Virus record (IMG/VR): IMGVR_UViG_3300044492_000179
Length of the DNA: 64,000 nt
Direction: 5' to 3' (one strand)
Origin: a virus
Under the pieces are notes generated by a model. It saw only the letters and a list, made by a program, of their open reading frames with translations, had not been told where the DNA came from and searched no databases. Positions 6,767 to 63,694 of the stretch are shown here, piece by piece. Within the stretch, counting starts at the first letter, position 1. Every line of letters starts with the position of its first letter. A program made the translations under genes and the position numbers.

Positions 6767-7462
6767 ATGAAGAAGCTGCTGCTGTTCACGACCGCTGCAC
6801 TGATCGCCACGCCGGTGGCGGCCACCGCAGACATGGCGTTGCGCCTGCAAGACGGCGCGCTCGTCCAGGATTTCTTTTCTGCGCCTGGAGCGAGTTCGTT
6901 CACCGGGCCGACCGACTTCGCGTTTGGAGATTTCACGATCTCCAACATCACGGGATCGACGACGCCGTCGACCACTGCCCCGGTGCTGTTGTCGACGAAC
7001 ACCTTGGACCTTCAGTCCACGGACATCGGATCGCACGTCCTCGACATCTTCGTCACCGGCAACAATTTGTTGTTCCCGACGGGCATCAACAACACCTTCT
7101 CGGGCTTCACCAGCGTTTCGTTGTCGGACGGCTGGACCTCGTCGTTGTCTACTTTGCTCGACACCGGCAATGGCAACTTCACCGGGTCGTTGGTTGACAG
7201 CATCGTGTTCAACGGCAACGGCATCTCGACGTTCTCCAACAACCAGACCGCCCTGGCGGACTTCGGTACTGGGCCGTACTCGATCACGGCGCACTACCAG
7301 ATCACGACCAACGGCACCGGACAGGCCAACAGCGGCATCCAGTTCGCCGCCGCGGCAGTCCCCGGCCCGGTCGTTGGCGCCGGCCTGCCCGGCCTGATCG
7401 CCGCGGGTCTGTTCATGGTCGGCCTCGCCAAACGTCGCCGCAACCGATCAGCTCAGGCCTGA
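6767..7462 (+). CDS. Secreted Ser/Thr-rich protein with PEP-CTERM-like (VPGP) sorting signal
   Basis: Signal peptide MKKLLLFTTAALIATPVAATA; tail VPGPVVGAGLPGL + TM + KRRR; RBS GGAG at 6754. Confidence 0.85.
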   Translation: MKKLLLFTTAALIATPVAATADMALRLQDGALVQDFFSAPGASSFTGPTDFAFGDFTISNITGSTTPSTTAPVLLSTNTLDLQSTDIGSHVLDIFVTGNNLLFPTGINNTFSGFTSVSLSDGWTSSLSTLLDTGNGNFTGSLVDSIVFNGNGISTFSNNQTALADFGTGPYSITAHYQITTNGTGQANSGIQFAAAAVPGPVVGAGLPGLIAAGLFMVGLAKRRRNRSAQA

Positions 7463-7560
7463 CGGGCCCTCTGCCCACTGCCCTCCCGTCAGCATGAGGG
7501 CGCGTGCGGGTCTATGTGCCGCGTCCCGCACGCGCATCATGCTCTGCTGGAGCTGCCCGC

Positions 7561-7698
7561 ATGATCGAATATGAGTTCATGACGATGGGGCAAATCCCGT
7601 TTGGCTATATCGCCGGCTTTGGGATCGTCGTGTTGGCGCTAGTGGTACTGGCCGCCTACGGGTGGCTCGTCGCGGTAGCGCGGATAATGGGATCGTGA
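7561..7698 (+). CDS. Small membrane protein (duplicated at 63098-63235)
   Basis: MIEYEFMTMGQIPFGYIAGFGIVVLALVVLAAYGWLVAV, one TM segment. Confidence 0.55.
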   Translation: MIEYEFMTMGQIPFGYIAGFGIVVLALVVLAAYGWLVAVARIMGS

Positions 7699-7847
7699 CC
7701 ACCCGTCCCGAGATCCGCGAAAAATCACCGCGCTACTGGAAGACCGGCCGCAAGCTCAGCGCCAAGCGGATCGCCGAGAACGAGCGCGCCGCAGAACTCA
7801 GCCGGTGGATCAAGGAAGAACTCGCCAGGGCCAAAACCGAGATCTAA
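7695..7847 (+). CDS. Small basic protein (duplicated at 63232-63384)
   Basis: GTG start overlapping the upstream stop; 50 aa. Confidence 0.5.
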   Translation: MTTRPEIREKSPRYWKTGRKLSAKRIAENERAAELSRWIKEELARAKTEI

Positions 7848-7861
7848 GCCGAGGAGAAAAA

Positions 7862-8089
7862 ATGACCGTCACTTATGAAACGCGGTGCGACAAAGTCGAT
7901 TGGGACAATCTCAAAACGGAAGTTATCACAAAGCTCGAATACCTTCGCATGGCCTGGGCGGCTTCGGAGCAGGGCGCGCCGACTGAATTGCATAGGAAAA
8001 TTGTTAACGATCTTTATGTCCCGGCTATTCGCCTGTTAGCGGAGTTTTGCGCGTGTCTCGAAGTGGATGAAGCACCGGACGACCAATGA
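7862..8089 (+). CDS. Hypothetical protein (duplicated at 63399-63626)
   Basis: Strong RBS GAGGAG before ATG; 75 aa. Confidence 0.65.
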   Translation: MTVTYETRCDKVDWDNLKTEVITKLEYLRMAWAASEQGAPTELHRKIVNDLYVPAIRLLAEFCACLEVDEAPDDQ

Positions 8090-8106
8090 GCCAATCCAAA
8101 TGAACA

Positions 8107-8295
8107 TCAAGATCGCGCTGCCCCGCATGCCGGCAAGCTTGGCCAAGGCGCTCGATCTTGTCTGTCGGCGATCTTGATCGGGCGCGGAAAACCATGCTCG
8201 CGCTGCTTGCGCATCAGATCGGTGCGGTTTTTCACGAGGCCGGCGCGCACAAGGCCGTCAAACCGAAAACCTTCGGCGCTCGGAAGATCATTCAT
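8107..8295 (-). pseudogene. AlpA/excisionase-like regulator, 3' end replaced at the repeat boundary
   Basis: GLVKNRTDLMRKQREHGFPRPIKIADR matches the AlpA-type FPxPIKI motif; sequence switches into the 720-bp repeat at 8157/8158. Confidence 0.55.
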
Positions 8296-8379
8296 TTGTG
8301 ACGCCCTCCAACAAAATCAGAGCGTCATCGAAATAGCATCACACCCACATCACTGTGCAGCCGGGACGAAATCATTTAG

Positions 8380-8923: not shown

Positions 8924-9721
8924 ATGGCTGATCCGATCAACCCGCTCGTATGCGACCTGTCGCACTGGAACATGGCTGACGACTACGAGGCTGCAAGACG
9001 AGACGGAATCGTGGGCGTGATCTACAAGGCGACCGAAGGGCAGAGCTACACCGACGACACCTATGTCGGACAGCAACAGGCCGCGAAAGCGGCTAGGCTT
9101 TGTTGGGGCTCATATCACTTCGCCGACGCTTCCGACGTTGGCGGCCAGATCGACAACTATTTGAGATTTGCCGCGCCTGATCCAGACGAACTGTTTTGCC
9201 TGGATTGGGAGGACAACCCGAGCGGCAACGGCGTGATGTCGAAAGACGATTGCAAGACCTGGATAATCGAAGTCGAGCGCGCACTGCGGCGCGAAGGCGA
9301 ATGCGTCGTGTACAGCGGCAACACCGCCAAAGAGGCATTGGATGATGATGTCGATACGTTCTTCGGGTCACGCCGGCTGTGGCTCTGCCAGTACGGCACG
9401 ACACCAAGCTGGCAGCGGTCGTGGGACAATTACTGGCTTTGGCAATTCACCGATGGCGAGTATGGGCCAGAGCCTCATTCAATCAGCGGCGTCGGCGAGT
9501 GCGACATCAACTCCTACGCCGGAAGCGCGGAGCAGTTGGTGGCTGAATGGGCCACCGGCTCAGCCGATATACTGCCGCCAGCCCCAGCCCCGCATGACCC
9601 AGTCGTGAACATCATCATCGCTGCGTCGCCGGGCGTGATCGTGAAGGTGAGGCAGACACAATTCAGTACGGCGTACCGCCAAATGCTGCCGGATCGACGC
9701 AGGGAAGCCGACGTCGAGTAA
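8924..9721 (+). CDS. GH25 muramidase (endolysin)
   Basis: DLSHWN, IYKATEG, WGSYHF, LDWED, VYSG, LWLCQY, WQFTD and DINSY are the GH25 motif series. Confidence 0.9.
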   Translation: MADPINPLVCDLSHWNMADDYEAARRDGIVGVIYKATEGQSYTDDTYVGQQQAAKAARLCWGSYHFADASDVGGQIDNYLRFAAPDPDELFCLDWEDNPSGNGVMSKDDCKTWIIEVERALRREGECVVYSGNTAKEALDDDVDTFFGSRRLWLCQYGTTPSWQRSWDNYWLWQFTDGEYGPEPHSISGVGECDINSYAGSAEQLVAEWATGSADILPPAPAPHDPVVNIIIAASPGVIVKVRQTQFSTAYRQMLPDRRREADVE

Positions 9722-9977: not shown

Positions 9978-10078
9978 TGCGCACGCATGAACATCAGCAG
10001 CAGCAGCACGGCCAGGATCGGAAGCGTGCCAGCGGAAACGACCTGCGCCACCAGCAAACGGTCGATCGGGCTTCGCAT
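9974..10078 (-). CDS. Small hydrophobic peptide
   Basis: MRSPIDRLLVAQVVSAGTLPILAVLLLLMFMRAH; ATG overlaps the stop of the upstream minus-strand ORF. Confidence 0.4.
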   Translation of the reverse strand: MRSPIDRLLVAQVVSAGTLPILAVLLLLMFMRAH

Positions 10079-10359
10079 CACAGGCTCGTTGAATAATTTA
10101 AATTCAACTGATCACCATTCACTACGGCCTTATCACCCGTGCTGAGCGTGCCGGCACTCCACAGCACGCCGCCGGTGTCGTCCTTGGTGGCGACCGCGCC
10201 GGTGCCGAAGCAGAGGAACGCACCCTTGACGGTGCCGGTGCCGGTGATGGCGAACGACAGCGCCGCCGACAATGCCTTTCCCCCAGCCGTGGCCGCCGAC
10301 CACACGGCGGTCTTGCGGTTGCCGGTATAGGTCGGCGCGTTGGCACCAACTCGGCTCAC
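10078..10359 (-). pseudogene. C-terminal fragment of a phage virion structural-type protein
   Basis: ANAPTYTGNRK...ITGTGTVKGAF...TKDDTGGVLWSAG...GDKAVVNGDQLNLNY resembles a recurrent tail-region protein; N-terminus appears missing. Confidence 0.5.
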
Positions 10360-11002: not shown

Positions 11003-13021
11003 TTATTTCCCCTTCCTTTTTTCGAGGGCCTCGATGCGCGTCATTGCGCCCGCGAATGCCGACGCCAGCAGTTCGACGGCCAACCACAATCGGTTCTGCA
11101 TGTCGTCCAGCGACTGTTGACCAGGCTTCCACTCGCTGGCCGTGGGCATTCCCGGCAGTGCCTCGTTGCGCAGCATCTGCTCGACGTATTGCTGCGGGTC
11201 GCGCGGATCGAAATCTCTCAGCATCTCGACAAACTTGTGCGCCAGATCATGCTTGCCGGTAGGGCTCACGGCATCCCACTGCGCGAGGTCGACCTTGCCG
11301 TGCTTGAGGTATTGCATCCCGAAGCACGTCAACGCCGTTCCACCGGAATAGACATTGCCCTGCGCGCGGACATCGCCGCCGACACCCAGCCCACCCGCCA
11401 CCTTCAGCGCGCCGGTCGTGGGGGAGGTGGAGGCGGTGGTGTCAGGGATATTCAGTGGACCCCCTGCTAAATAAAACACGCTGCCTGTCCACTGCAGATA
11501 CTTCGTGAAGGCATCGCCGAAATAATAAAGCCCGGTGGCGGGAGTTGCGGCAAGGGAGGAAACAAAAGCAGTTCCGTAAACATCCTTCGCGTTAATGTTG
11601 CCACCGATCCCCAGCCCACCCGCCACCGTCAGCGCGCCCGTGGTCGGGGAAGTACTAGCAAGCGTGCTGTCCGCCCAGACACGGCTGCCGCCAAGTTTTA
11701 GTGGCTGGAAAGAACCAAAGCCGGTCTTATCGACCCCCTCCACGACGCCGCCGATCACATCGGTGCCAATTCGAACACCGTAGGTAGGCCCAGAAACCAG
11801 CAGCGTTCCGCCATTAGCGACGGCCTCGGATATCCGCATTTGATTGCCAAAATAAGCCATCCCGCTGACACCGAGTCCGCCCGCCACCGTCAGCGCGCCC
11901 GTGGTCGTGCTGCTCGATGCGGCGAGCGACCCCACCGTCAGGCTGCCGTCAGGACCAACGGAAAAACGGTAGCTCTTGAAAGGCGAGCCCAGGAATGTCG
12001 CACCCGTCAGGTCGATTCCGTCGGTAATTGTCGGAGCACTTTTGACGGCCAGAATACTGCCCGTCGTCTGCAGCGGAGTGGCGCCGTACTCTTCGCCGAC
12101 CTGTATCAGCGTTCGCCAGCCCACCGCGCTAGGCTGATTGGAAAACAGCACGGCCGCGTCGTTGCGACTGCCGGCCACCGCGTCCTTGGAGGTCTGGACG
12201 ATCTTGAGGCCATACTTGTTGAGCGCGCTCGAGCCGGCCTCTAGTTGGGTGTTATACTCCGATATGCTCGCCTCCAGCAGGTTCTTGGCCGCGGGCGCAA
12301 GCCAAACGACAGGGTTGGTCGCAAAAACATAACCGCGCTCGCTCCCGACCCCGCCACCGTCCGACGACGTGGCCTGCCCCAGGAACATGGCGCCGACGTA
12401 AAATTGATTACTGTTGGTCGGCGCCGAAGGCGCGTCCAAGCTGGTAATGACCTGCAGCCCCTGCCGGCCGCCCTTCATCGCGGCCCCGCCGAAGGTGTGC
12501 ACAATCGCCAACCCGTCCACGAAGCCGGTTCCGGCATCGAGCGTATCGCTCCAGACCGAGACCTGGTTCAGGGCGCCGGTGTTGGCTGTGCGGGGGCGAA
12601 CGCCAAGCGTACCGGGCAGCAGCAGCGCCGCCGCGCTGCCGGCGATCGTGCCGGCAGGATTCTGGTAGACGTCGAGCGCCCGGTCCGTGGCCGGCGGCGC
12701 GACCTTGGCCGTCGCATTGACCGTCAGCTGCCCGCTCATGGCGTCACCGGCCTTGGACACCTTTGGCGTTTCGAGCTTGGCGTCGGAAATGCCGCCGTCG
12801 AGGATGCCGATATTCACGACCGTCGTGCCGCCGCCACCGGACAGGCCGTCGCTCACACCGACGGAATGGATAACCCCAGGCACGCCGTCGTCGCCCTTTG
12901 CCCCTTGCGGACCGGGCGGGCCCTGCTCCATCGTCTGGATGACTTCGGCCATGTCATCGAGCATGACAACAACAGACGCGATCCCGACATCCACATCCTG
13001 CGTGACGACTACCTCTTTCAC
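11003..13021 (-). CDS. Tail fibre / receptor-binding protein
   Basis: Short collagen-like GPPGPQG, Gly/Ser/Thr-rich body, three S(T/P)TTGAL(T/K)VAGGLG repeats, C-terminal coiled coil MTRIEALEKR typical of fibre chaperone ends. Confidence 0.8.
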   Translation of the reverse strand: MKEVVVTQDVDVGIASVVVMLDDMAEVIQTMEQGPPGPQGAKGDDGVPGVIHSVGVSDGLSGGGGTTVVNIGILDGGISDAKLETPKVSKAGDAMSGQLTVNATAKVAPPATDRALDVYQNPAGTIAGSAAALLLPGTLGVRPRTANTGALNQVSVWSDTLDAGTGFVDGLAIVHTFGGAAMKGGRQGLQVITSLDAPSAPTNSNQFYVGAMFLGQATSSDGGGVGSERGYVFATNPVVWLAPAAKNLLEASISEYNTQLEAGSSALNKYGLKIVQTSKDAVAGSRNDAAVLFSNQPSAVGWRTLIQVGEEYGATPLQTTGSILAVKSAPTITDGIDLTGATFLGSPFKSYRFSVGPDGSLTVGSLAASSSTTTGALTVAGGLGVSGMAYFGNQMRISEAVANGGTLLVSGPTYGVRIGTDVIGGVVEGVDKTGFGSFQPLKLGGSRVWADSTLASTSPTTGALTVAGGLGIGGNINAKDVYGTAFVSSLAATPATGLYYFGDAFTKYLQWTGSVFYLAGGPLNIPDTTASTSPTTGALKVAGGLGVGGDVRAQGNVYSGGTALTCFGMQYLKHGKVDLAQWDAVSPTGKHDLAHKFVEMLRDFDPRDPQQYVEQMLRNEALPGMPTASEWKPGQQSLDDMQNRLWLAVELLASAFAGAMTRIEALEKRKGK

Positions 13022-13362
13022 CGCGTTGCTCCCGCATTATTCGTCAGCAGACCTGACCAGACGCGAATCTTGTTTCCGTACATCGTTAGGATGTTCGAGT
13101 GGTCAAACTCGCCAAGGCCGAGCTGCACCAGCGTGCCCTGCTGAATTCGCACGGAAAATTTGCCAGCCACTGGATCGATCAGGACGATTTCGCCGGTATC
13201 GGTCGCGAGACGCAGCAGTGCGATCGCGTCTTTCGCGTGCCGCCGCAGCATCATCTCCATCGAGCCGCCGGTCAAATCGATCGGAGCGCCGTCGATCGTC
13301 TGGTACGAGAACGAGCGGTAAAAGTCCGCGTCGTTGTAGGTGGTGATGTTGACGATGGCCAT
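13018..13362 (-). CDS. Tail/baseplate-associated small protein
   Basis: PIDLTG..MEMMLR...IVLIDPVAGKFSV pattern; position between fibre genes. Confidence 0.6.
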   Translation of the reverse strand: MAIVNITTYNDADFYRSFSYQTIDGAPIDLTGGSMEMMLRRHAKDAIALLRLATDTGEIVLIDPVAGKFSVRIQQGTLVQLGLGEFDHSNILTMYGNKIRVWSGLLTNNAGATR

Positions 13363-13374
13363 GACGAACGAACC

Positions 13375-13950
13375 CTAGGCGAATGCAGTGTCGATCTGCG
13401 CCAGCGTCGTGGTCGTGCCGGCGTCGATGTCGGTGAACACGCCGGACGAGATCGTGAAACAATTGTTGATGTGGGCTTGCAGCTCATCACTCATCGCGGT
13501 AACGGCAGCGTCGTCCAACGACCAGAACGAGCCATCGGCCGCGTGCCATTGGGTACTGGCTTGCGTCACCAGCCTGATACCGTTGATCTTGGCCTGCGAG
13601 CGGTCGTCGGTCTTGATCGGCATGCCAGAAGTCAACGTGATCCCGCCCTGCTCCTTCCGCCAGCGCGCATCGCTGGCATAGGCTTTCAGTTGATCTTTGC
13701 TGTACGTGCTCAACGCCGGTTGAATGAACGACGCCGCGTTGAACAGCCAAGACGGCAGTCGCGAACCGTTGGAACGCACAGCGTCCGCCAACTCAACCTC
13801 GTTGACGATAGGGGTCGCTTGGCCGTTGGCCGTTTGCCATGCAACATAATTTGCGTCGCCGCTCGCAACCATCGTGTTGGACTTGCTCTGATAGACTTGC
13901 GTGGTTGAACCAGCAATCGACCAGTAGTGATCTGCGATGTTCATGTTCAT
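13375..13950 (-). CDS. Tail fibre assembly-type protein (DUF4376-like)
   Basis: ARWRKEQGGIT..GMPIKTDDRSQAKING...WHAADGSF pattern; follows a tail fibre gene. Confidence 0.75.
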   Translation of the reverse strand: MNMNIADHYWSIAGSTTQVYQSKSNTMVASGDANYVAWQTANGQATPIVNEVELADAVRSNGSRLPSWLFNAASFIQPALSTYSKDQLKAYASDARWRKEQGGITLTSGMPIKTDDRSQAKINGIRLVTQASTQWHAADGSFWSLDDAAVTAMSDELQAHINNCFTISSGVFTDIDAGTTTTLAQIDTAFA

Positions 13951-15257
13951 GCGTATTGTCCTCCGCTGGAGGTGCTGCCCGCGACAGTTCCTGGCAGATA
14001 GGATACGCCTCTGCCTATCGTCTGGATCACGCCATTCGTGTTCGCGCTATATTTTGGGCCGGTGGCATTTGAGAAGCCGGTGTATGACTTCCAGATTGGC
14101 CTCGCCTGCCCGCCTTCAGTCGCGCCAACGAATGCAGAGCCGAACGACGCCGCTCCTGAAATGATCATGTCCGGGTCAGATGGCAGCCCTACTCCACTGA
14201 GCAGTTGCCCGTTCGTGTATGCGTGCTGATGAAACAAGGAGGCACCGCCGTTGATCGTTTGTGTCCCTTGGACGAGCGTAAACCCACCGGGCCCGGTGAC
14301 GATGTGCGAGCCGACGACCGCGTTCCAGTAAGCAACAACAATGTGCAAAGTAGTCGCTCCAGACGACCAAATGCCGTGGCCCTGATCGCCCGGTGCTTGC
14401 GCCGTCGTGCGGAAGCTGAAGCCGTCAACGATGTAGCTACCTCCATTCCGCATATGCCACGCCGACCCGGTCCCGACGTTGAAGATGGATACCGCGGCGG
14501 GGTTGCTGACATTACCGACGAGATGCACGTTGCCAGACCCGTTCGGCATCGGAAACAGGACCGGACTTGAGTTGCTATAGACGCTGTCGGCCACGTGAAT
14601 ATAAAAGTCCCAGCCACCAAGGTTATACTTGACCATCGTGCTCAAGGCTTTCTGGATCGTCCGAAACGGACCACCGTGTGGTCCTGTGATGGTCGACGAG
14701 GTGCCGTCGTACAATGAATCATCCCCAGTAACGCCGTTGACGTAGAGGTGGCTGGTCGCGACCATAATGACAGACGCGCTGGGATTCCCCCCGCCGACGA
14801 GTTGAAAGTAGGCCCCGTCATAGATGACGTCGATCAATTGCCCGGCCGTTAGCTCGTATGCCAGCATCGCCGACAGATCGGAGTGGATGAGCGGCACCGC
14901 GCCCAGGCCGCTGACGTTGACGGTCACTTGCGACGTGTTGCCGGAAGCTAGCTTGATGACCATGCGCAGACCGGCCCTGTAGGCTGTAACAGGGACGACA
15001 GGTGCGACCGCAACCTGGTTCGGCGCACCGACATCGACACCATAGTTGATCTGGCCGCTCTGCACGGCCTTCGCGAGTTGCAGCAAATCGGAATTCGTCG
15101 GCGTCAGTCCGGTGACGTTGATGAGGTTGACAATTTCCCGTTGCGGGTACTCGATCGACGCCGCGGGTGGGATCGACCCCATCGTGCCGGTCTCGGGATT
15201 GCCGTTGATGTAAATTGCGTCTTCGTCCGAGTTGCCAAAAGGTGCGTTGTATTTCAT
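13947..15257 (-). CDS. Tail fibre protein (baseplate-proximal)
   Basis: N-terminus YINGNP...IPPAASIEYPQREIVNLI...DLLQLAKAV typical of Mu-like fibre attachment domains; after the baseplate wedge genes. Confidence 0.75.
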   Translation of the reverse strand: MKYNAPFGNSDEDAIYINGNPETGTMGSIPPAASIEYPQREIVNLINVTGLTPTNSDLLQLAKAVQSGQINYGVDVGAPNQVAVAPVVPVTAYRAGLRMVIKLASGNTSQVTVNVSGLGAVPLIHSDLSAMLAYELTAGQLIDVIYDGAYFQLVGGGNPSASVIMVATSHLYVNGVTGDDSLYDGTSSTITGPHGGPFRTIQKALSTMVKYNLGGWDFYIHVADSVYSNSSPVLFPMPNGSGNVHLVGNVSNPAAVSIFNVGTGSAWHMRNGGSYIVDGFSFRTTAQAPGDQGHGIWSSGATTLHIVVAYWNAVVGSHIVTGPGGFTLVQGTQTINGGASLFHQHAYTNGQLLSGVGLPSDPDMIISGAASFGSAFVGATEGGQARPIWKSYTGFSNATGPKYSANTNGVIQTIGRGVSYLPGTVAGSTSSGGQYA

Positions 15258-15258
15258 G

Positions 15259-16233
15259 TCATGGTGTCCCTGTCAGGAAGATACGGCAGTGCGGATCGAT
15301 GCCGCATTGATGTTTGCCAACCTCGAACCAGACGTGTCGTGGCATGTCGGCCATTTCGGAGTAGTCGAAGATGATTTTGGTGTGTGCCGGCTTCCAGCGA
15401 TTGAGCAGGCATTCCAGGTCGTCGGCAAGGCCGATGCGCAAGTGCGGATCGATGCCGCATTGGCCGCCGCCGCTGCCGACCCGGAACCAAATCAGCTTCG
15501 ATTGATCGACGTGGACCGTCCAATAGAAGCGGTTGGTCTGTGGGCCAAGCCCATAGCTCGGCCACGCCGATAATTGCCCTTCCGCAACCGGGGTGCCGCG
15601 CTCGTTGACGATGGGGTCGCCCCATTCGTCGTACATCGGCAGCGGCGGCGTGCCATAGACGCGGCTGTCGCCACAACGATCGATGCCTACCACCCAAGGC
15701 CGATACTCCGAGATCGTAATTCCGTAGCCAAGCTGCGCGGCGACCTTGATGAAGAATTCGCGCGATTGCGCGCCCTCCATCGTCATCCGCATGACCAGCG
15801 CACGCTGGCGCTCGCCAATCGTCAGCGGCTCGGTGTAGCAAGGATCGGGTAGCCCCCAGTTGCGCTCCCAGTCCGGCAGCAGTTCCAGTGTACGGCGCGG
15901 GTCGCTCTCCTGTTCGAGCAAGTCGGCCGCGCGGGTGTCCACGAAGCCCCAGATTTGCGCCAGCCCCCTGACCGTACGCATCAATGCTGCGAGCGGGTCG
16001 CGTGGCCATGCCGGTCCACTCGGCAACAGGCCGGTGAGTGGCTCCGCATAGTCGTCGCCTGAGCGGCGGGCGTGAACGTCGGTCGCTGGCACAGGCACCA
16101 CCTGCGACGGCGGCGCGTCCAGCGGCGCGGGCGGCGGCGGGGCTGGTGGACCCACCAGGGGCGTATAGCCGTCGGTGTCGCCGTAGAAGTAGCGCTTGCC
16201 TGGAAGCGGGTTTGTGTAGGGGTCGTCGGTCAT
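15259..16233 (-). CDS. Baseplate wedge protein, YmfQ/DUF2313 (Mu gp48-like)
   Basis: LLPSGPAW...ELLPDWERNWGLPD...LECLLNRWKPAHT. Confidence 0.85.
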   Translation of the reverse strand: MTDDPYTNPLPGKRYFYGDTDGYTPLVGPPAPPPPAPLDAPPSQVVPVPATDVHARRSGDDYAEPLTGLLPSGPAWPRDPLAALMRTVRGLAQIWGFVDTRAADLLEQESDPRRTLELLPDWERNWGLPDPCYTEPLTIGERQRALVMRMTMEGAQSREFFIKVAAQLGYGITISEYRPWVVGIDRCGDSRVYGTPPLPMYDEWGDPIVNERGTPVAEGQLSAWPSYGLGPQTNRFYWTVHVDQSKLIWFRVGSGGGQCGIDPHLRIGLADDLECLLNRWKPAHTKIIFDYSEMADMPRHVWFEVGKHQCGIDPHCRIFLTGTP

Positions 16234-17303
16234 GCGAAATAGACCGTGCCCAGCACCGCCATGTGCCCAAGCGACGGCATGACGACGGTGTCGAAGGTCA
16301 GCTCGTGGTGCTCCTCGCCAATGGCACCGCTAACGGCCTCCGCAACCCACGAGCGATAGATCGTCTGTCCTGGAGCTGCGTTCCTGAACAGCATGTCGGA
16401 CACTGCCTGCACGACGGCGTTGCGGGTGGCGTCGTCGTCCCGCGTCAGCGCGCTGACCGTGAGGTCGATGTACTGGATCAGCGGCGCGAAGCAGTAGCAC
16501 TCCATCACCGTGACCGGTCGCATTGTGTCGAGATGGTCCGACACCGTCTGCACGTCGGCCGGCGTCGGCCAGCCGCCCGTCGACGCGCGCAGGTCGTCCA
16601 TCAGAAAACGCGTGGTGATGGTGCCTGCGCCCTGCTCCGACGCCGCCCACGCGCGCGTGACCCCCGGCATCTGCATCGCCCAAATTTCATAATCGGCCTG
16701 ACTGCCGCCCATCGCAGGGTTCTGGATGCGCTTGAGGATGCGTTCGCGGAGCTGCTCGTCGCTCTCCTCGTTGACGCCGCCGTCCATGTCGCCGTAGAGC
16801 ACCGCGCTCGGGATGCCCGCAATCGGGGTGATGAGCGCGATCCCCTCGCCGTCCGGCATGTTGCCGACCGTCCCGGCGGTCAGCGCCACCGCGTCGGCAT
16901 TACCAGTGCCCCCGATCCCGATCAGGGCTTCGGCGATGGTCTGGTATCGCACGCCGTTGGCGCCCGACAGCAGCGTGCCGACCGCGACGGTGAACCCGCT
17001 GGTGCCGGTGAACTGCACCGTGCCGCTGGCGTAGGTCGCCGCCTTGCGTCCCTTCGAGCCGTCGGCATTGACCAGCCAGATGTTGCCGTGGCGATCGAGC
17101 CATTCGCGCTCGGCAGTGTCTGGCAATAACTGCTTGGCCAGCCAGTCGAGATAGAGGAGCACCAGATTTGCAAGGCCTGCCATGGCATCGGACATGATGC
17201 GCAGGGCCGAATTCGGGACCATTGCCTTTGCACCAAGCTGGCTGAGCACGTAGTCGCGTGTCAGACGGCGCGTTTCTTTCAGCGTGGGCGTAATCCACGG
17301 CAT
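16230..17303 (-). CDS. Baseplate J / Mu gp47-like protein
   Basis: Start MPWITPTL at 17303; LLPDTAE, ESDEQLRERIL, GGSQADYEIWA, GVTRAW motifs. Confidence 0.9.
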   Translation of the reverse strand: MPWITPTLKETRRLTRDYVLSQLGAKAMVPNSALRIMSDAMAGLANLVLLYLDWLAKQLLPDTAEREWLDRHGNIWLVNADGSKGRKAATYASGTVQFTGTSGFTVAVGTLLSGANGVRYQTIAEALIGIGGTGNADAVALTAGTVGNMPDGEGIALITPIAGIPSAVLYGDMDGGVNEESDEQLRERILKRIQNPAMGGSQADYEIWAMQMPGVTRAWAASEQGAGTITTRFLMDDLRASTGGWPTPADVQTVSDHLDTMRPVTVMECYCFAPLIQYIDLTVSALTRDDDATRNAVVQAVSDMLFRNAAPGQTIYRSWVAEAVSGAIGEEHHELTFDTVVMPSLGHMAVLGTVYFA

Positions 17304-17821
17304 CAGGGCGCTCCCTCGATGAGCTGCTGCCAGAGATCGGCGAAGCGTAGTTCGACGGCAGGTTCCGGGCCCCGGTAGATGACGACGCGAACGTCGATGC
17401 GGTCGATGTCGGTCTGCTCGGCGATCACGTCGATGCGTGACGCTATCCTGTTGGTGACGAACGGCCGCATGGCGTCTCGGGTCCAGCCGTCCACGCGCGC
17501 GAGCGTGGAGCCGCTGCGCGCCGACGGCCCAGTGATCTTGGCCCTGCGAAGCAGCCACAGCAGGCTGCCGACCGGCCAGCCGCCCCATATCTCCTCTGCA
17601 TCCATATCGGCCCACCAGCCGAACCTGTCGGTGCTGTCGGGGTCGGGCAACTCCTCGGTCTGCGGTGCCAGCGCGTTGGTGCCGAGTGCGATAATCACGG
17701 CAGTTTGCAGATCGTAACCATCCGCGATCAGGTTCTGGTCCGTCAGCAGCCAATCGAGATTGACCGCATAGGCAGGGAAATCGAGCTGCTGCAGGTAGCG
17801 GATGTCGCCGCCCGGTGTCAT
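17303..17821 (-). CDS. Mu gp46-like baseplate protein
   Basis: LQTAVIIAL.T...GWWAD...GSLLWLLRRAK. Confidence 0.85.
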   Translation of the reverse strand: MTPGGDIRYLQQLDFPAYAVNLDWLLTDQNLIADGYDLQTAVIIALGTNALAPQTEELPDPDSTDRFGWWADMDAEEIWGGWPVGSLLWLLRRAKITGPSARSGSTLARVDGWTRDAMRPFVTNRIASRIDVIAEQTDIDRIDVRVVIYRGPEPAVELRFADLWQQLIEGAP

Positions 17822-18828
17822 GGCCGCGCCTCCAGCTTTGCGATGCGTGCCTCAAGCGCCTCGACGCGCAGCTCCAGCGGATGCCTTATGATTTCCATCG
17901 AGCTTGGGTCAGCCTTGATCTGGATTGGCTTGCTCGACCAGATGCCTCCACTGTCGCACCAGAGAACATTGTCGCCGTGCATCATGTGAACGTGGTTGTC
18001 GTCCACCTTGCTGCTTTTCGTCTCGTCGCCGCCAGCCGTGTGCAGCCAGCGCTTGTTGTCCTTGTCGTAGTGGCCGACCACAGTCTCGCCGGTCCTGAAC
18101 TCGACCTTGCTCTTTGAGGCCCTCATCTCGGTGTTGACCTCGTCTCCCTCGTGTTTGTACTGCTCACGATTTGGGGAGCGCTCCGCTTCCGCGCGCTCGT
18201 CCGCGCTCATCGCCCTGATGTCGTAACCGGCGGCGGCCCACGATCGCAGGTTCTGTTGCGGGGTTCCGCTGCTGCGGTCCTGCTTTTTCTTGACCACGTG
18301 GCGGACTGAAACGAAGCGCTCCTTCTTCTCGCTTTTGCCGGTCGCGCGCCCCTGCGCGTCACGCAGCATTTTGCCGCCCGGAGCCTGACCACTTCCATCG
18401 TCGTCGAGCGACATGATGTAGGTCGCCGCCGCACGGATCAGCGTGCCCTGCCCCTGATGGTCGTACTGGAAGCTCTCTCCCGGCTTCATGCCCATCGGGC
18501 GGTGCCTGCGGTCATCGACCCCGATCACCACCGGATGATTGCGCTGACCTCCCAAGAAGACTGCGATGCCCTCTGCGGCCTTGCCTTTGATGTTCGCCAG
18601 CAGGCTGCCGATGGCGCCCTGCGCGCCACCCTCCTGCTCGTCGCGCGGCAGCGGGATCGCGCTCATGCCGAACGACTGCATGCGCTCGACGATCTTGCGG
18701 CCCTCCTTGGCCATGCCGTCGAAACTCAGCTCCTGCATCATCGGATTGTCGTTGGCCTTGTTCATCGTCAGCCGAACGATCTGGTGCATCGTGCGCCCCG
18801 ACATCTCCAACAGACTGTTCCTGTTCAC
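17818..18828 (-). CDS. Baseplate assembly protein V / Mu gp45-like spike
   Basis: ERMQSFG, DDRRHRPMGMKPGESFQYD typical of gp45 N-terminal OB fold. Confidence 0.8.
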   Translation of the reverse strand: MNRNSLLEMSGRTMHQIVRLTMNKANDNPMMQELSFDGMAKEGRKIVERMQSFGMSAIPLPRDEQEGGAQGAIGSLLANIKGKAAEGIAVFLGGQRNHPVVIGVDDRRHRPMGMKPGESFQYDHQGQGTLIRAAATYIMSLDDDGSGQAPGGKMLRDAQGRATGKSEKKERFVSVRHVVKKKQDRSSGTPQQNLRSWAAAGYDIRAMSADERAEAERSPNREQYKHEGDEVNTEMRASKSKVEFRTGETVVGHYDKDNKRWLHTAGGDETKSSKVDDNHVHMMHGDNVLWCDSGGIWSSKPIQIKADPSSMEIIRHPLELRVEALEARIAKLEARP

Positions 18829-18835
18829 GTCGCCC

Positions 18836-20038: not shown

Positions 20039-20040
20039 CG

Positions 20041-20703
20041 TTACACCGCCAGCATCTTTCCCTGCCTTGGGCAGAACGCGGGATGGACGACCGAATTCTC
20101 TGCAATCAGCTCAAGGTGGCGCATCGGGTCGGCGTAGGCGCGCTGCGCCATCCGCAGCGACGGCATCACGCCCTGGTAGCTGTAGTTGATGACGCGCGGA
20201 AGCTGCCGCCCACGCACGGCGAGGTGCTGGGTAACGCTGCCGTGCAGGTTGATCATCGCCATGTAGGTCGCGGCATCGAGGTCGTCGGACGCCACCTCGA
20301 TGGTCTGCGTGAACGCGGCGTTCATCACACCGGCAATTGCATCGACCTCCTCGCGCGAGCGGAAGGTCATGTAGGCGACGATGCGGGCCTCGGTTGCCAG
20401 CGTCAGCCGCACCATGGCGAGCACGGTTTGCACTGCCTGCAGGCTGACCGGCCGCTCCGCCAGTGCCGCCTTGCGCACCCGGTCCATGGTGGTCAGCGTG
20501 GCCTTACAGTTGCGCGCGAGATCGACGCAGACGCTGAAGGCGTAGCAGAAGGTTTCCAGGTCCAGCATGTTGGGATCGACCACCATCATGCCGACCGCGC
20601 GCCGCAACGCCGTGCCCACGGTTCCGGTCAGCCGCACGGCGGCCGACAGCACCACCGGGCCGATCCGCTTGACGATCCCAACGATTTCCTCGTCGCTCAT
20701 CAT
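20041..20703 (-). CDS. Mu gpN-like protein, C-terminal part as separate ORF
   Basis: PSLRMAQRAYAD..RHLELIAENSVVHPAFCP is the C-terminal motif of Mu N-type proteins. Confidence 0.7.
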   Translation of the reverse strand: MMSDEEIVGIVKRIGPVVLSAAVRLTGTVGTALRRAVGMMVVDPNMLDLETFCYAFSVCVDLARNCKATLTTMDRVRKAALAERPVSLQAVQTVLAMVRLTLATEARIVAYMTFRSREEVDAIAGVMNAAFTQTIEVASDDLDAATYMAMINLHGSVTQHLAVRGRQLPRVINYSYQGVMPSLRMAQRAYADPMRHLELIAENSVVHPAFCPRQGKMLAV

Positions 20704-52437: not shown

Positions 52438-53258
52438 CACCGCTGGCCTACGAGCTGCTGAAGGATTTGACCACGCCAGGTGCGTTCAAGTCGCTCGATC
52501 CACACGCGCGCGAAACACTCTGGTCGATCGTTAACGAGGCAAAATTTTTCGACGTTGTGAGCGCCCAGGAAATGATCCTCGACGTCGCGATTAAAACATA
52601 TGAGGCGTTCCGTAAGTACAGCGCGCTCGATCGCCGCCTTGCGTTCTTGCCGGCGACGGTCACTTGGATCGAATACTCCGTGTCTTCCGGCCGTGCGGCT
52701 TACGTCCTCGTCTCACCGGACCTTGAACGCACGACGATGGCTGCCGATGTCGTGATGATCGCTAAGGACGGCGATTGGTCTGCGTTGCGCATGACCGCGC
52801 AGCCGCTGCCGTTGATCAGCTCAGGGGGTGTGCCCGATGCTGAGGCCGAACAGAAGCGGTGGCAAAAGATTGGCAGCGAGAGACTGCCTCTCAATGTCCA
52901 CTTTGTCTGCTATGCCTCGCTCGCGCTCATCAACACGCCGCGCATCATTGGCCGGCGCCAGCACATGCCGCATGAGCGCGTCGAGCGCGAGAAGCTCAAG
53001 ACGCTCGGGCTGGTCGGTAAATTTCCGTTGCGCGCCTGGACCGAAATCATCCTGAAGGTCGCGCCCCCCGATAATCGCACGGGCGAACCCTCGACCGAGG
53101 GGCACTTGACCGGTGAGAAATGCCTGCACTTCGTGCGCACGTTCTTGCGCGTGCGCATGGGCCAGCTCGAATACGTTGAATCCCACTGGCGTGGCAATCC
53201 AGCACTCGGGATGAAGCGCAGCCGGTACCGGCTTCAGCCCGGAGAGGCGCAGCAATGA
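52434..53258 (+). CDS. Hypothetical protein
   Basis: 274 aa, ends CLHFVRTFLR...VESHWRGNP. Confidence 0.7.
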   Translation: MTPLAYELLKDLTTPGAFKSLDPHARETLWSIVNEAKFFDVVSAQEMILDVAIKTYEAFRKYSALDRRLAFLPATVTWIEYSVSSGRAAYVLVSPDLERTTMAADVVMIAKDGDWSALRMTAQPLPLISSGGVPDAEAEQKRWQKIGSERLPLNVHFVCYASLALINTPRIIGRRQHMPHERVEREKLKTLGLVGKFPLRAWTEIILKVAPPDNRTGEPSTEGHLTGEKCLHFVRTFLRVRMGQLEYVESHWRGNPALGMKRSRYRLQPGEAQQ

Positions 53259-54277
53259 CACCCATCGAGCCCGGCATTTATTTCGGTTTGGACGAAGCGA
53301 TCTATCACGCTGACCCGGCGCTCGGCTCGACCGACATCCGGCGGCTGCGATGCAGCGCGGCTGACTACTGGCACCATTCGGCGCTCAACCCAACGCGGCC
53401 GTCGGTGGAACCGAGTCCGGCGCAAGCTTATGGCCGCGCCATTCACCTGCGCGTCCTGGAAGGCCACGACAAATTCCTGCAGCGCTACGAACGCACGCCC
53501 GAGCCCGAGGGCTTGCTGGTGACCGACGCCGACCTGGCGGACTGGTTGACCGCGCATGGCGTCAACAAGTTGCCGCGCAGCAAGGCCGAGAAGATCGTGC
53601 AGGCAATCGGCCTTGATCCGCAAGTGCGCATCTTGTCCGAATTCGAACGGCGAGCTGCAGAAGCCGGCCGCGAGTTGCTCAAGCGTGCAGATTACGATCG
53701 CATCATCACCGCGTCCAATTTGATCACGCAAAACCCCGATCTTGCCACCGCATTCAGCAACGGCTTCTCAGAGGTTAGCGTGTTCTGGGATCGTGCCGAC
53801 GGCGTGCGCTGTAAGGCACGGTTTGATTTCCTGAAAGCCCGCGGCATCGGCGATCTCAAGTCGACACGCAACCCGCTCGGGCTGGATTTCATCGATGCCT
53901 GCCGGCGCGCGATCGCCAACTATCGCTATGACATCCAGGCCGCACATTACCTCGAAGGCCGCCGGCACATTCCGGCACTGCTCGGCAACGTGCAGGGCGA
54001 CCACGATGACGACTGGCTGGCGCGTGTCGCAGCTACGGAAGAGTTCGGTTTCGTGTTCGTGTTTTTCCAGGCCGATGATGCGCCAATTTCCTGGGCGTGC
54101 TCGCTCTCGCCCGGCAATCCGATTCTTGAGATCGGGCGTCAGTCGATCGAGGCGGCGATCGAGCGCTTCAAGCTGTTCGGATCGCAGTTCGGGCCCCACG
54201 AGCCCTGGATGCTGCAGGAGCCTGTCGAAGAACTCACCATCGGAGAGCTGCCAGGCTATTACGGGAGAGGCAAATGA
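53255..54277 (+). CDS. PD-(D/E)xK exonuclease (RecE/ExoVIII C-terminal, DUF3799-like)
   Basis: IEPGIYFGL....YHADPALGST, EVSVFW, CKARFDFL, DLKS, YRYDIQAAHY. Confidence 0.85.
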   Translation: MTPIEPGIYFGLDEAIYHADPALGSTDIRRLRCSAADYWHHSALNPTRPSVEPSPAQAYGRAIHLRVLEGHDKFLQRYERTPEPEGLLVTDADLADWLTAHGVNKLPRSKAEKIVQAIGLDPQVRILSEFERRAAEAGRELLKRADYDRIITASNLITQNPDLATAFSNGFSEVSVFWDRADGVRCKARFDFLKARGIGDLKSTRNPLGLDFIDACRRAIANYRYDIQAAHYLEGRRHIPALLGNVQGDHDDDWLARVAATEEFGFVFVFFQADDAPISWACSLSPGNPILEIGRQSIEAAIERFKLFGSQFGPHEPWMLQEPVEELTIGELPGYYGRGK

Positions 54278-58510: not shown

Positions 58511-58774
58511 ATGGCGAATCGGCCACCGATTGACCTGAGTGTTCGAAAGCTCGATCCGTCCGATCCGCGCAGCCCGGAGCACCCGAGTCATGACGAGCAG
58601 TTCCGGGAATTAGCCCGCGCTGTCGGGCGAGCCCTTGCTCGGCGTGATTGGGAGCGCGCACACAATGGCAAGATTGAGAGGACATCAAGTGACGAAGGCA
58701 GCCGAGGGAAAGAGGAGGGCCGTGCTCTACGCAAGGTTCTCAAGCGATCTGCAAAAGGATCGGTCGATCGATGA
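58511..58774 (+). CDS. Small protein overlapping the recombinase start (directionality-factor candidate)
   Basis: ELARAVGRALARRDW; overlaps the integrase 5' end. Confidence 0.5.
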   Translation: MANRPPIDLSVRKLDPSDPRSPEHPSHDEQFRELARAVGRALARRDWERAHNGKIERTSSDEGSRGKEEGRALRKVLKRSAKGSVDR

Positions 58775-60452
58775 TCAATTTGCGGTTTGCGAGAATTTGG
58801 CAAGGCGCGAACAGCTCAAGATAGTCGAAAGGTACAGCGACCGCGCCAAGTCAGGCGCGAGCATGTTTGAGCGCGACGAATTGCTCGAGATGATGACGGC
58901 GGCGAAGGGGCGGCAGTTCGAGTTCATCATTGTCGAAAGTCTGGACCGACTGTCGCGAGATCAGGAAGATCTAGCTGGCATCTTCAAGCGCCTAACCTTT
59001 TACGGCATTGAGATTCAAACCGTCAACGAAGGTGCAGCCACATCGCTGCACATTGGCATTCGCGGGATCGTCGGATCGATGTTCCTGGCGGATCTTGGCA
59101 ACAAAGTGCGCCGCGGTTTGAGTGGGCGCGTGCGTGAGGGCAAATTTCCAGGGACCGTCACTTATGGCTACCGCATGATCCCCGGCAAGCCTGGCGAGCG
59201 GGAGATCGATTTAGATCAAGCCGCGATCGTGCGGCGGATCTTCGAACAGTATGCGAAGGGCCGTTCGCCGCGCTCGATCGCCAGCGATCTGACTAACGAG
59301 GTGATTCCGACGCCGGGCGGGGCCGCTGCTTGGTCCCATCAAATGTTCGTCGGCGGCAATCTGCGCCACGGGATGATCGGCAACCGGCTCTACATCGGCG
59401 AGCTAGAGTGGAATCTGACGCGGACGGTTCTGAACCCCGAGACGGGCTCGCGGACGAAGCGGGCCGGCCCAGCTGACGAGCGACTGGTCGTCGCCGTCCC
59501 GCACCTGCGTATTATCGATCAAGACCTCTGGGATGAAGCGAACGCCACGCGGCAACGGCGCGCGAAGAAAATGTTTGGAGGAGACGGGAAGCTGAATACA
59601 TCGCGCGCGGGAATCGTCACTCGAAACGATTACCTGCTTGGCGGCCTGCTGCGCTGTGGCAAGTGCAATGGCCCCATGCGCATCGTTTGCTCGACTACGA
59701 AGGGCAAGTATGCTGGAAGCCGCATCGGATGCTCTGCGGCGTCGCAGACTTCCACCTGTGAACATTCCCGGTCTTATGATTTGGCGAAGCTTACGAACAG
59801 CGTGCTCGACGGCATGCGCGTGCGCCTGACCAACCGTAGCGTTATCGCCGACCTGGCTCGCGCCTACCACGAGGAATATTCGGCACACGATAAAAAGAAC
59901 CGTGGCGATGTGACCTCGATCAAGAAGGCGCTCAATCGCGTCATGGTGAAAATCGACCGGACCATTGCCGTGATCCGGGATAGCGATCTTCCCCTTAAGC
60001 CTTTGACGGCCGAACTTCAGACGCTTGAGCGCGAGCGCATCGGACTTGCCGAACGGCTTCGCCTGCTGGAGCAGAGCAACGTCGTCAACCTGCACCCCAA
60101 GGCCATCGACGGCTTTGTTGCTAACGTCGAGACCTTGTGGGGCGCCTTGACCAAGGACGGGGAGATCGAGCCCGGCGCCCGCGAGGCTTTCCGCAACGTG
60201 ATCGACACGGTGATCGTCCATCCAACCGGCAAGCGAATGCCTTACGAGACCACGGCCTATGCAAGGATCGGGGCAATCTCCGGCGTCGACCTCTTTCCGC
60301 CGGTGCGCAGCACGGCTGAAATCCTGGAATCTGAAGGGGTTAAATTCTTTTGTGACGGCAACCCCGCCACCCCGGGGTTGCCGGTAACGAAGAATGGAAA
60401 TGGGGGGGTTATTCCGCTCGGACGGTGGGTCCAAAGGGCAAAGGTGGCCTGA
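58689..60452 (+). CDS. Large serine recombinase (integrase)
   Basis: AVLYARFSS catalytic Ser motif, ESLDRLSR, YGY, recombinase domain, zinc ribbon LRCGKC...C...C, coiled coil; GTG start after GAGAGGA. Confidence 0.95.
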   Translation: MTKAAEGKRRAVLYARFSSDLQKDRSIDDQFAVCENLARREQLKIVERYSDRAKSGASMFERDELLEMMTAAKGRQFEFIIVESLDRLSRDQEDLAGIFKRLTFYGIEIQTVNEGAATSLHIGIRGIVGSMFLADLGNKVRRGLSGRVREGKFPGTVTYGYRMIPGKPGEREIDLDQAAIVRRIFEQYAKGRSPRSIASDLTNEVIPTPGGAAAWSHQMFVGGNLRHGMIGNRLYIGELEWNLTRTVLNPETGSRTKRAGPADERLVVAVPHLRIIDQDLWDEANATRQRRAKKMFGGDGKLNTSRAGIVTRNDYLLGGLLRCGKCNGPMRIVCSTTKGKYAGSRIGCSAASQTSTCEHSRSYDLAKLTNSVLDGMRVRLTNRSVIADLARAYHEEYSAHDKKNRGDVTSIKKALNRVMVKIDRTIAVIRDSDLPLKPLTAELQTLERERIGLAERLRLLEQSNVVNLHPKAIDGFVANVETLWGALTKDGEIEPGAREAFRNVIDTVIVHPTGKRMPYETTAYARIGAISGVDLFPPVRSTAEILESEGVKFFCDGNPATPGLPVTKNGNGGVIPLGRWVQRAKVA

Positions 60453-60810: not shown

Positions 60811-61107
60811 ATGACACATCGTGCAACGAGCTGGACGCTCCCCGCGCTGAGGAACACCATGCTCCGTGTGCTGTCGCGCAGTGAGCGCGACCGGATCATA
60901 ATCCCGATTGACTGCGATATGTGCCAGGCCGGCGACCTCGTTGGGATCACCGCGCTGGTGTGCACGGGCATGATCGTGTGGCTCGACCGCTACGCGCTGT
61001 GCCTGCCGCGCAGCCGCAACGCTTTTCAGCTGATCAGTGTCAACGTGTACCTGCTGACGCCCGCAGGCTCCGCGCTGTGCGAGCAGCACGGGATCAAGCA
61101 ACGATGA
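60811..61107 (+). CDS. Hypothetical protein
   Basis: 98-aa ORF ending YLLTPAGSAL. Confidence 0.45.
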   Translation: MTHRATSWTLPALRNTMLRVLSRSERDRIIIPIDCDMCQAGDLVGITALVCTGMIVWLDRYALCLPRSRNAFQLISVNVYLLTPAGSALCEQHGIKQR

Positions 61108-61337
61108 CCGACCATCCGGTGGTGAGGCCGCAGAAAGAGAGCTGACATGGTCGCGTACTCATTCAAACGCCAGTTTGTCGAACCGATCCGCATCGGGCTT
61201 GGCCTGCCGCCGCTGGTGCTGCCGCCGGCACGACGCGCGGACGGGGCAAAGCCGCCGGTCAAAGGGAACGCGGTCGGCCTTGATATAGCCGGTCGTCACC
61301 GGCGACGAGATTTTGCGGGCGATGGAGGAGGACTGAT

Positions 61338-61946
61338 ATGGCGAGCCGGGAACATTTGGAGCGGGTCAGCAAGGCGTTGATCGGCGAGGGCAAGCTGATC
61401 GAGGCCGGCTGGGCGGGCCTGCGGCTCGCAGTTGGCTTGGAGAATGCGCCGGCCGAGCAGCTGCGCGAGATGCGGACAGCCTTTTTTGCCGGGGCGCAGC
61501 ATCTCTTGGCCAGCGTGATGTCGGTGCTCGACCCCGGGGCTGAGCCGACCGACGCCGACCTGAAGCTGGTGGGGCAGATCAACAACGAGCTGCAGAAATT
61601 CATCGAGGGGTTTGCGCAGGACGTCGGGCGCAAGAATAAGGCAAGCGCTAGGCCGGCGCCGGCGGAACCAGCGCGGCCCACCGCTTTCCAGCAGACGCTC
61701 GGCGACGCGCCGATCGAGGCGGACTATCGCGAGCAGATGAATGTCTTGGCGCACGTTTTAGATGCCGAATTTAATGGAGGGGATACCGGCAGGAAAACCG
61801 GCTTTGTGCTGCTGGTGTTCCCGTTTGCCGATCATGCCGGTCGCTGCAACTACATCAGCAACGCCAACCGCGACGACGTCGTCGTTTTGCTCAAGGAGCA
61901 GCTGGCGCGGTTCGAGGGCTGGCCGGACGCGAGCGGCCATGCCTAA
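61338..61946 (+). CDS. Hypothetical protein
   Basis: RBS GGAGGAG; EMRTAFFAGAQH and GFVLLVFPF...CNYISNA blocks. Confidence 0.7.
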   Translation: MASREHLERVSKALIGEGKLIEAGWAGLRLAVGLENAPAEQLREMRTAFFAGAQHLLASVMSVLDPGAEPTDADLKLVGQINNELQKFIEGFAQDVGRKNKASARPAPAEPARPTAFQQTLGDAPIEADYREQMNVLAHVLDAEFNGGDTGRKTGFVLLVFPFADHAGRCNYISNANRDDVVVLLKEQLARFEGWPDASGHA

Positions 61947-61961
61947 ACAGGATATGCGATT

Positions 61962-62654
61962 ATGAGCGGTCGGTTTGTTGATGAAAGGGAGGATGACATG
62001 ATCGAGCGGCCGGCGCGGCTTAAGCATTTTCCGACGGACCATCGCGGATTTGTAGTCCCCTGGTTCGTGCAGTGGTTCAAGGACGGCGAGCCCGGTACCT
62101 TTGGCGAGGGCGCGCCCGACTTTCGCGTTGCCGACGAGCACAAGTTTAGGCGCGCGCTGAAGGAGAAGCGCTGCTGGGTTTGCGGCGACAAGCTTGGCGT
62201 GCATTTGGCGTTTCTGATCGGGCCGATGTGCGCGGTGAACAAGGTCACCAGCGAGCCGGCCTGTCATTTCGAGTGTGCGGACTATGCGGCGCGCGTCTGC
62301 CCCTTCCTGACGCGCCCGCGGATGCGGCGCAACGAGCATGCGTTGCCGGCGGAGCGCATCGAGGCGCCCGGGTTGCATTTGCGGCGCAATCCGGGTGCGT
62401 CCTGCCTCTGGGTCACGCGCAGTTACACGACGTTTCGGCCGGGCGTCGGCGCGGACGGCATGCTCTTCGCGCTCGGCCCGCCCGAGCGCGTGCTTTGGTA
62501 TTGCGAGGGGCGGGCGGCGACGCGCGCCGAGATCGAGGCCGCGATCGTCGGCGGCTTGCCGGCGCTGGAGGAGGTCGCGGAGTTGCAGGGCGGCGGCGCC
62601 AGGGCCGAATTGATCGAGGGCGTGCGGGCCGTCCGGACGCTGTTGCCGGCATGA
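61962..62654 (+). CDS. Cys-rich hypothetical phage protein (start may be 61997)
   Basis: GFVVPWFV, RCWVCG, GPMCAVN..TSEPACH.ECA.YAARVCPFL. Confidence 0.7.
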   Translation: MSGRFVDEREDDMIERPARLKHFPTDHRGFVVPWFVQWFKDGEPGTFGEGAPDFRVADEHKFRRALKEKRCWVCGDKLGVHLAFLIGPMCAVNKVTSEPACHFECADYAARVCPFLTRPRMRRNEHALPAERIEAPGLHLRRNPGASCLWVTRSYTTFRPGVGADGMLFALGPPERVLWYCEGRAATRAEIEAAIVGGLPALEEVAELQGGGARAELIEGVRAVRTLLPA

Positions 62655-62974
62655 ACGACAAGCAGCTTGAGCTTTGGACCGTCTACCAAAACACGAGCGA
62701 TTACCCTGGGCAGTACGTGGCGCGGAAGTTTCTCAACGATCAACCGACGGCGGAGATGTTTGTTTCCGCCCGGATGTTACCGGGCATGCGTAAGCACCGC
62801 GGGATTGAGCAACGGCAACTCCAGCCAGGCAGGCTTCGCCGGCTGACGGCAGTCGCGGATGTCGCGGACCAGATTGGCGATCAGCTCGGCCTGCGTTTTG
62901 TTGCGCTCGGAAGCGTTGGCGGCGACTTCGCCGAGCACATAGGCGGCGAACCAGAGAAAACCAACATTAACCAC

Positions 62975-63694
62975 CCGCAACCGATCAGCTCAGGCCTGAC
63001 GGGCCCTCTGCCCACTGCCCTCCCGTCAGCATGAGGGCGCGTGCGGGTCTATGCGCCGCGTCCCGCACGCGCATCATGCTCTGCTGGAGCTGCCCGCATG
63101 ATCGAATATGAGTTCATGACGATGGGGCAAATCCCGTTTGGCTATATCGCCGGCTTTGGGATCGTCGTGTTGGCGCTAGTGGTACTGGCCGCCTACGGGT
63201 GGCTCGTCGCGGTAGCGCGGATAATGGGATCGTGACCACCCGTCCCGAGATCCGCGAAAAATCACCGCGCTACTGGAAGACCGGCCGCAAGCTCAGCGCC
63301 AAGCGGATCGCCGAGAACGAGCGCGCCGCAGAACTCAGCCGGTGGATCAAGGAAGAACTCGCCAGGGCCAAAACCGAGATCTAAGCCGAGGAGAAAAAAT
63401 GACCGTCACTTATGAAACGCGGTGCGACAAAGTCGATTGGGACAATCTCAAAACGGAAGTTATCACAAAGCTCGAATACCTTCGCATGGCCTGGGCGGCT
63501 TCGGAGCAGGGCGCGCCGACTGAATTGCATAGGAAAATTGTTAACGATCTTTATGTCCCGGCTATTCGCCTGTTAGCGGAGTTTTGCGCGTGTCTCGAAG
63601 TGGATGAAGCACCGGACGACCAATGAGCCAATCCAAATGAACATCAAGATCGCGCTGCCCCGCATGCCGGCAAGCTTGGCCAAGGCGCTCGATC
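62975..63694. repeat. 720-bp direct repeat, copy 2
   Basis: Matches 7438-8157 with one difference; begins with the last codons of the VPGP gene that is complete only at copy 1. Confidence 0.95.

Follow-up and report, generated by a model that had tools for sequence, protein, structure and literature searches.

The window examined here, a 64,000-nt stretch of the IMG/VR virus record IMGVR_UViG_3300044492_000179, carries a complete phage gene set enclosed between two copies of a 720-bp direct repeat, and we conclude that this record is probably two separate phage genomes threaded together by a metagenome assembler through a segment common to both. The enclosed unit and the DNA outside the repeats belong to two different temperate phages, called phage A and phage B respectively, which co-occur in the same sample series and were each found alone in other contigs with a single copy of the repeat. 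An assembly join is favoured by the fragmentation of genome B in the source contig, by B arms that carry markers of different strains, by a hybrid that holds no sequence unique to itself, by a reciprocal junction that occurs nowhere else and by the lack of any hybrid from assemblers that are unable to jump repeats. The initial annotation of this DNA had left the choice between a cointegrate and an assembler join; both parents have now been found, and the new evidence favours the join.

The repeat and its two parent genomes

A seed-and-extend scan and base-by-base comparison placed the repeat at 7438-8157 and 62975-63694, with a start-to-start spacing of 55,537 bp, in agreement with the initial description of a repeat bracketing a unit of that length. 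The two copies agree at 719 of 720 positions (99.86%), the sole mismatch being a single-nucleotide polymorphism (SNP), T at 7517 and C at 63054, and at both ends identity drops to random level within one base; that such a repeat arose by chance is impossible. Since the SNP sits 80 nt from the left edge of the segment, the truly ambiguous stretch is confined to the 640 bp on its right, and proof of a hybrid junction takes a single fragment of 642 nt or more (7517-8158 or 63054-63695). No sequence below that length distinguishes the hybrid from its parents, and only the combinations of 7517T with 8158 and of 63054C with 63695 are diagnostic.

The repeat comprises the end of a 236-aa (amino acid) gene, small open reading frames (ORFs) of 45, 50 and 75 aa, and codons 1-19 of a further reading frame, the MNIK ORF. 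Copy 1 does have the native left flank first ascribed to it, with the repeat setting in 25 nt ahead of the stop codon of the gene at 6752-7462, which has a TTG start. Its right flank had been described as broken, with a truncated MNIK ORF fused to an AlpA fragment, and of this the truncation stands: the MNIK ORF is cut at codon 19 and stops six codons further on. The AlpA label is unconfirmed and serves as a lead only, as a language-model feature search (Atlas) linked the ORF at 8107-8295 to Phage_AlpA clusters of 65-72 aa with a score of 0.92, and Pfam and PHROGs gave no match to it, even at E = 10. Copy 2 has the reverse pattern, as claimed, with an intact MNIK ORF of 77 aa (63637-63870) and, on its left, a 5'-truncated copy of a 93-aa gene of phage B.

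Exact-protein lookups in assemblies of the Joint Genome Institute (JGI), the European Nucleotide Archive (ENA; MEGAHIT) and Logan gave 61 loci, which were classified by BLAST and junction strings. The continuous region that had been predicted from joining 1-8157 to 63695-64000 is phage B, arranged in exactly this way (B-left/repeat/B-right, allele T) in 16 independent records. The predicted excised circle is phage A, which crosses the repeat from 62974 to 8158 with allele C in four other records (A-left/repeat/A-right). One record, L013 (2,911 bp, JGI 3300043609), joins B-left through the repeat to A-right with allele T, and none joins A-left to B-right. Over the repeat and its junctions all spanning records match the window at 100% identity, and in each contig the SNP allele goes with the left flank, T for B and C for A. 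The left arm together with copy 1 (1-8157) is likewise 100% identical to B-only contigs (e.g., L016, L019 and L023). A junction-pattern search of IMG/VR and JGI metagenome contigs did not recover the source contig, its sole matches being a distant B relative of 57.7 kb and a fragment of 2.6 kb, and megablast of both window ends against GenBank phages and PLSDB plasmids gave no match.

Phage B is circular, given an exact 141-nt end overlap in a MEGAHIT contig of 55,186 bp (ERZ27257245 k141_598000), which reduces it to 55,045 bp. For phage A, contigs of 55,680 bp (JGI) and 55,567 bp (Logan, equal to 55,537 + k-1 at a k-mer length, k, of 31) fit a 55,537-bp circle, a conclusion drawn from length arithmetic plus one verified end, that of the Logan contig, which coincides exactly with the repeat's right edge.

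Probable assembly join and rival explanations

The window appears to be a slice of a 74,788-bp JGI contig made up of the whole A genome and some 19 kb from B. In the protein cluster tables this contig is the longest for A-left, A-right, B-left, B-right and repeat proteins alike. Mapping of further B proteins sets the left end of the contig some 8.0-8.2 kb outside the window, with genes present for proteins of 190 aa and 202 aa, GcrA, MT-A70, a helix-turn-helix (HTH) protein and TnpB, and its right end lies about 2.6-2.75 kb past the window, with a 64-aa gene, a tyrosine integrase and a 43-aa gene present. Absent from the contig according to these tables are the 60-aa, 65-aa, 206-aa and lysozyme genes of B, and it bears no sign of host DNA. 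Given that neither window end falls at a visible variant branch, the window is an internal slice of this contig. Of the 55-kb B genome the contig thus includes only about 19 kb, B being fragmented at strain-variable sites, as is typical when mixed strains are assembled from short reads. The arms themselves carry mixed markers: the 43-aa gene in the right arm has the allele (P0048) of strain B2, which lacks TnpB (L017 and L018), the left arm is that of strain B1, and a B1 left arm together with the P0048 allele was seen in 0 of the 16 repeat-spanning B records. Because B1 and B2 are identical over about 3.2 kb, from 7256 through the tyrosine integrase (about 15234-18443 in L016), short reads cannot phase the left arm against the right.

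We propose that two circles, A of 55,537 bp and B of 55,045 bp, meeting at one shared stretch would form a figure-eight assembly graph, in which a path through B-left, the repeat, the whole A loop, the repeat again and B-right uses every edge and would yield exactly this contig, alleles included. The source assembly was presumably made from short reads, and its repeat or loop resolution would have picked the hybrid path; path extension of the SPAdes type would traverse such loops. Repeats that exceed the insert size and are common to several replicons are a recognised assembly problem, described for plasmids (PMC6581055). The present record resembles the chimeric or loop-traversing contigs that such repeats cause in de Bruijn-graph metagenome assemblies: it involves two circular genomes with a common repeat whose length exceeds that of the k-mer and probably that of the insert, contigs from sister samples break at the repeat edges with k-1 overhangs, and the hybrid holds nothing that is absent from its parents.

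The repeat behaves as a branch point in samples that hold both A and B, with contig arms halting k or k-1 bases inside the shared segment (k = 141, 127 and 31). MEGAHIT arms halt at 8017, 63554 and 7658 (the SNP + 141), JGI arms at 8031, 63569 and 7643 (the SNP + 126), and a Logan arm at 8128, so that the ends lie 141, 126-127 and 30 nt inside the repeat, respectively; three of the four arms in sample ERZ27267878 have an end of this kind. Handling of the repeat varies among the mixed JGI samples: 3300043580 breaks there, 3300049153 threads B to B and leaves A dangling, and hybrids occur in 3300043609 (L013) and in the 74,788-bp source contig. Among the loci retrieved, neither MEGAHIT nor Logan, which cannot jump repeats, yielded a hybrid contig.

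Several observations weigh against an assembly join. The independent contig L013 has the same B-left/repeat(T)/A-right hybrid at 100% identity, so that with the source contig this junction was assembled twice. Both phages have recombination modules of their own (YqaJ-like and weak RecT-like genes in B, an ExoVIII-like nuclease in A), and the 99.86% identity of the segment implies recent DNA exchange, which makes real crossovers at this segment biologically expected. The argument from mixed strains also has its limit, since a natural B1/B2 recombinant could give a B1 left and a B2 right arm. The ends of L013 were considered as known strain-variant sites, which was rejected as the nearest such sites, 6316 and 7255, do not fit its start at 7057.

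These observations lead to the alternative of a real cointegrate, which we consider possible though unlikely. In this reading a circular A genome and a B genome underwent one reciprocal homologous crossover in that part of the 720 bp which lies right of the SNP, with host RecA or the exonuclease/annealase modules of the phages as catalyst, and A would have entered the early operon of B by Campbell-type insertion. A single crossover would give precisely this structure, alleles included, with a circle bracketed by shared homology and flanks exchanged. Both parents are documented and encode recombination genes, the B-left/repeat/A-right junction recurs in the second assembly, and a segment so nearly identical in two phages that are otherwise unrelated suggests that they exchanged DNA recently in a host common to both. 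Against this stand the absence of the reciprocal A-left/repeat/B-right junction from every other contig, the absence of hybrids from MEGAHIT and Logan, and two B arms with markers of different B strains. Moreover, phage genes and not host DNA follow the B integrase, so that B is not a resident chromosomal prophage here, provided that attP adjoins the integrase gene. A cointegrate would then exist as a free dimer of about 110.6 kb, double the length of either genome, which would probably neither be packaged nor dominate a sample or reach the abundance that could drive an assembly. Campbell-type insertion into a related resident phage by general recombination is textbook knowledge, and the lambda-type tandem or double lysogens that it produces are alike in having a whole circle between direct repeats of homology and parental flanks exchanged. 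The classical cases nevertheless concern a prophage in the chromosome and related phages that are homologous over long stretches, whereas here only 720 bp are common and no host DNA is seen. We are doubtful that the record captures a real heterodimer of about 110.6 kb formed by two unrelated temperate phages through a conserved, portable 720-bp early-operon patch; in that event the patch, whose right edge recurs as a mosaic junction in other phages, might be a dedicated crossover point at which unrelated phages of one host exchange entire early and late halves.

Site-specific integration of one prophage into another, with the A integrase acting on an attB-like site in B and the repeats as attL and attR, is highly improbable. 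It is established that serine integrases do not depend on long stretches of identity and leave no long duplication behind. Phage A does encode a large serine integrase 2.5 kb from the repeat, and prophages are documented to integrate at attB sites inside other E. coli prophages, in chromosomal prophage clusters (Nakamura et al. 2021, PMC8112680). Those cases likewise have one complete phage nested in another, but they are integrase-mediated events with att sites of 21-121 bp, in contrast to the repeat here, which at 720 bp is much longer than such an att core, lies in an early operon and has gene fragments as its edges in A. The truncated genes that bound the segment in A are as expected after illegitimate acquisition, and the same segment stands in an ordinary operon context in B. 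A single genome with terminal redundancy or concatemer read-through, to which we attach next to no probability, would explain a direct repeat one genome length apart, but is excluded by the outside flanks, which are unrelated on both sides and come from a different phage found alone in 16 contigs (the left 7.4 kb and the right 0.3 kb, the latter with about 2.6 kb more in the 74,788-bp contig, are phage B); the initial annotation had likewise set this reading aside over the differing flanks.

Assembly join and cointegrate are each a known kind of thing. As an artefact, the record would illustrate cleanly how a mosaic patch common to two genomes makes an assembler nest one complete phage in another; contigs of this kind inflate genome-size estimates and may be mistaken for giant or nested prophages or for evidence of phage-in-phage integration. 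If real, the record would be a recombination intermediate of two unrelated soil phages at a defined 720-bp hotspot, a known event that is rarely caught in nature. Either way, the data provide two complete uncultivated temperate phage genomes, A of 55,537 bp and B of 55,045 bp, and a single module shared between them.

Origin of the shared segment

In phage B the segment lies within an intact operon, whereas in phage A both of its edges cut genes, from which we infer that A acquired the patch from a B-like phage; judging from the sequence, A may have gained it by illegitimate recombination or aberrant excision. Apart from the 720 bp, homology between A and B is confined to two short stretches, one of 206 bp at 62768-62973 with 93% identity to the 93-aa gene of B, which in its intact form adjoins the lysozyme gene there, and one of 360 bp in the lysis region at 9984-10344 with 83.5% identity. 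The distant B relative L044, the 57.7-kb IMG/VR contig, matches window positions 7352-8156 through its positions 413-1484, in rearranged form and at 92-95% identity. Its similarity also ends at 8156, which marks the right edge as a recurrent mosaic junction. In these features (a short, near-identical patch in dissimilar genomes, edges that cut genes of the recipient, and a right edge that recurs in L044) the segment resembles the mosaic module exchange of temperate phages, as in modular theory with its shared boundary sequences, and has nothing unusual, being the ordinary pattern. Comparison of the 75-aa protein encoded in the repeat with GTDB genomes gave no meaningful relative, and no host was pointed to by this route.

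Gene content and strain variation

The enclosed unit with one copy of the repeat is a complete temperate myovirus of the Mu-tail type, phage A, whose marker genes are listed with those of phage B in the table. Lysis, tail, head, packaging, replication, recombination and integrase genes had all been claimed for the unit and were recovered, and an immunity gene that had been claimed with them was not confirmed, the candidate repressor at 44598-45365 having no family match. The large terminase of A is at most 49% identical to that of any cultured phage, with Microcystis phage Mae-JY30 as best match, and A therefore represents an uncultivated lineage. The window as a whole has about 62% G+C, and no transfer RNA genes were found in it.

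Table. Features of the window (64,000 nt) by parent phage; positions count from the first nucleotide of the window
Feature	Position	Strand	Phage	Remarks
Left arm, early/recombination operon, strain B1	1-7437	+	B	Pfam matches
TnpB	1-780	+	B	5' end cut by window
YqaJ-like exonuclease	ends 2026	+	B	
302-aa gene	2023-2931	+	B	
Weak RecT-like gene	2928-3986	+	B	
136-aa gene	4076-4486	+	B	
HTH protein	ends 5487	+	B	
236-aa gene	6752-7462	+	B	
Repeat copy 1	7438-8157	+	B allele	T at 7517; every B contig has T
AlpA/excisionase-like ORF	8107-8295 (first 46 codons 8158-8295)	-	A	Cut off at right edge of repeat; lead only
Unique part of phage A	8158-62974	mixed	A	Marker genes; 100% identical to A-only contigs over the about 23 kb compared
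GH25 lysozyme	8924-9721	+	A	
Tail fibre/baseplate	11003-20703	-	A	Mu-type baseplate
Tape measure	21317-23683	-	A	
Tail tube	24188-24586	-	A	
Tail sheath	27503-29041	-	A	
Major capsid E	30507-31520	-	A	
ClpP-type prohead protease	32440-33522	-	A	
Portal	33535-35121	-	A	
Large terminase	35567-37606	-	A	
Two DNA methyltransferases	40783-42659	-	A	
Primase/helicase	45981-47621	-	A	
ExoVIII-like nuclease	53255-54277	+	A	
Large serine integrase	58635-60452	+	A	2.5 kb from repeat
5'-truncated homologue of the 93-aa gene of B	62768-62973	-	A	93% nucleotide identity, e.g., to L016 20023-20228; abuts left edge of repeat in A
Repeat copy 2	62975-63694	+	A allele	C at 63054; every A contig has C
Right arm, early operon continued	63695-64000	+	B	Intact MNIK ORF 63637-63870

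In B contigs the MNIK ORF is followed by 58-aa and 64-aa genes, the tyrosine integrase, a variable region, and minus-strand lysis and tail genes. TnpB, of the IS605 OrfB type, is an insertion polymorphism, present in B1 and the window and absent from B2, whose alignment to the window picks up again at 726; B2 records depart from the window further out in the left arm. Just to the left of the block in which B1 and B2 are identical, the two strains diverge by 2-4% (5501-6316), and the contrast in the sequences suggests a recent sweep or gene conversion. The ORF immediately upstream of TnpB (7047-7679 in L016, and its equivalents) was called at 196 to 294 aa across contigs, and may be a hypervariable gene or reflect mere differences in gene calling. 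At 1315-3017 of L016, a GcrA-like regulator adjoins an MT-A70 (CcrM-like) methyltransferase in phage B, a pairing typical of Alphaproteobacteria that offers a clue to the host.

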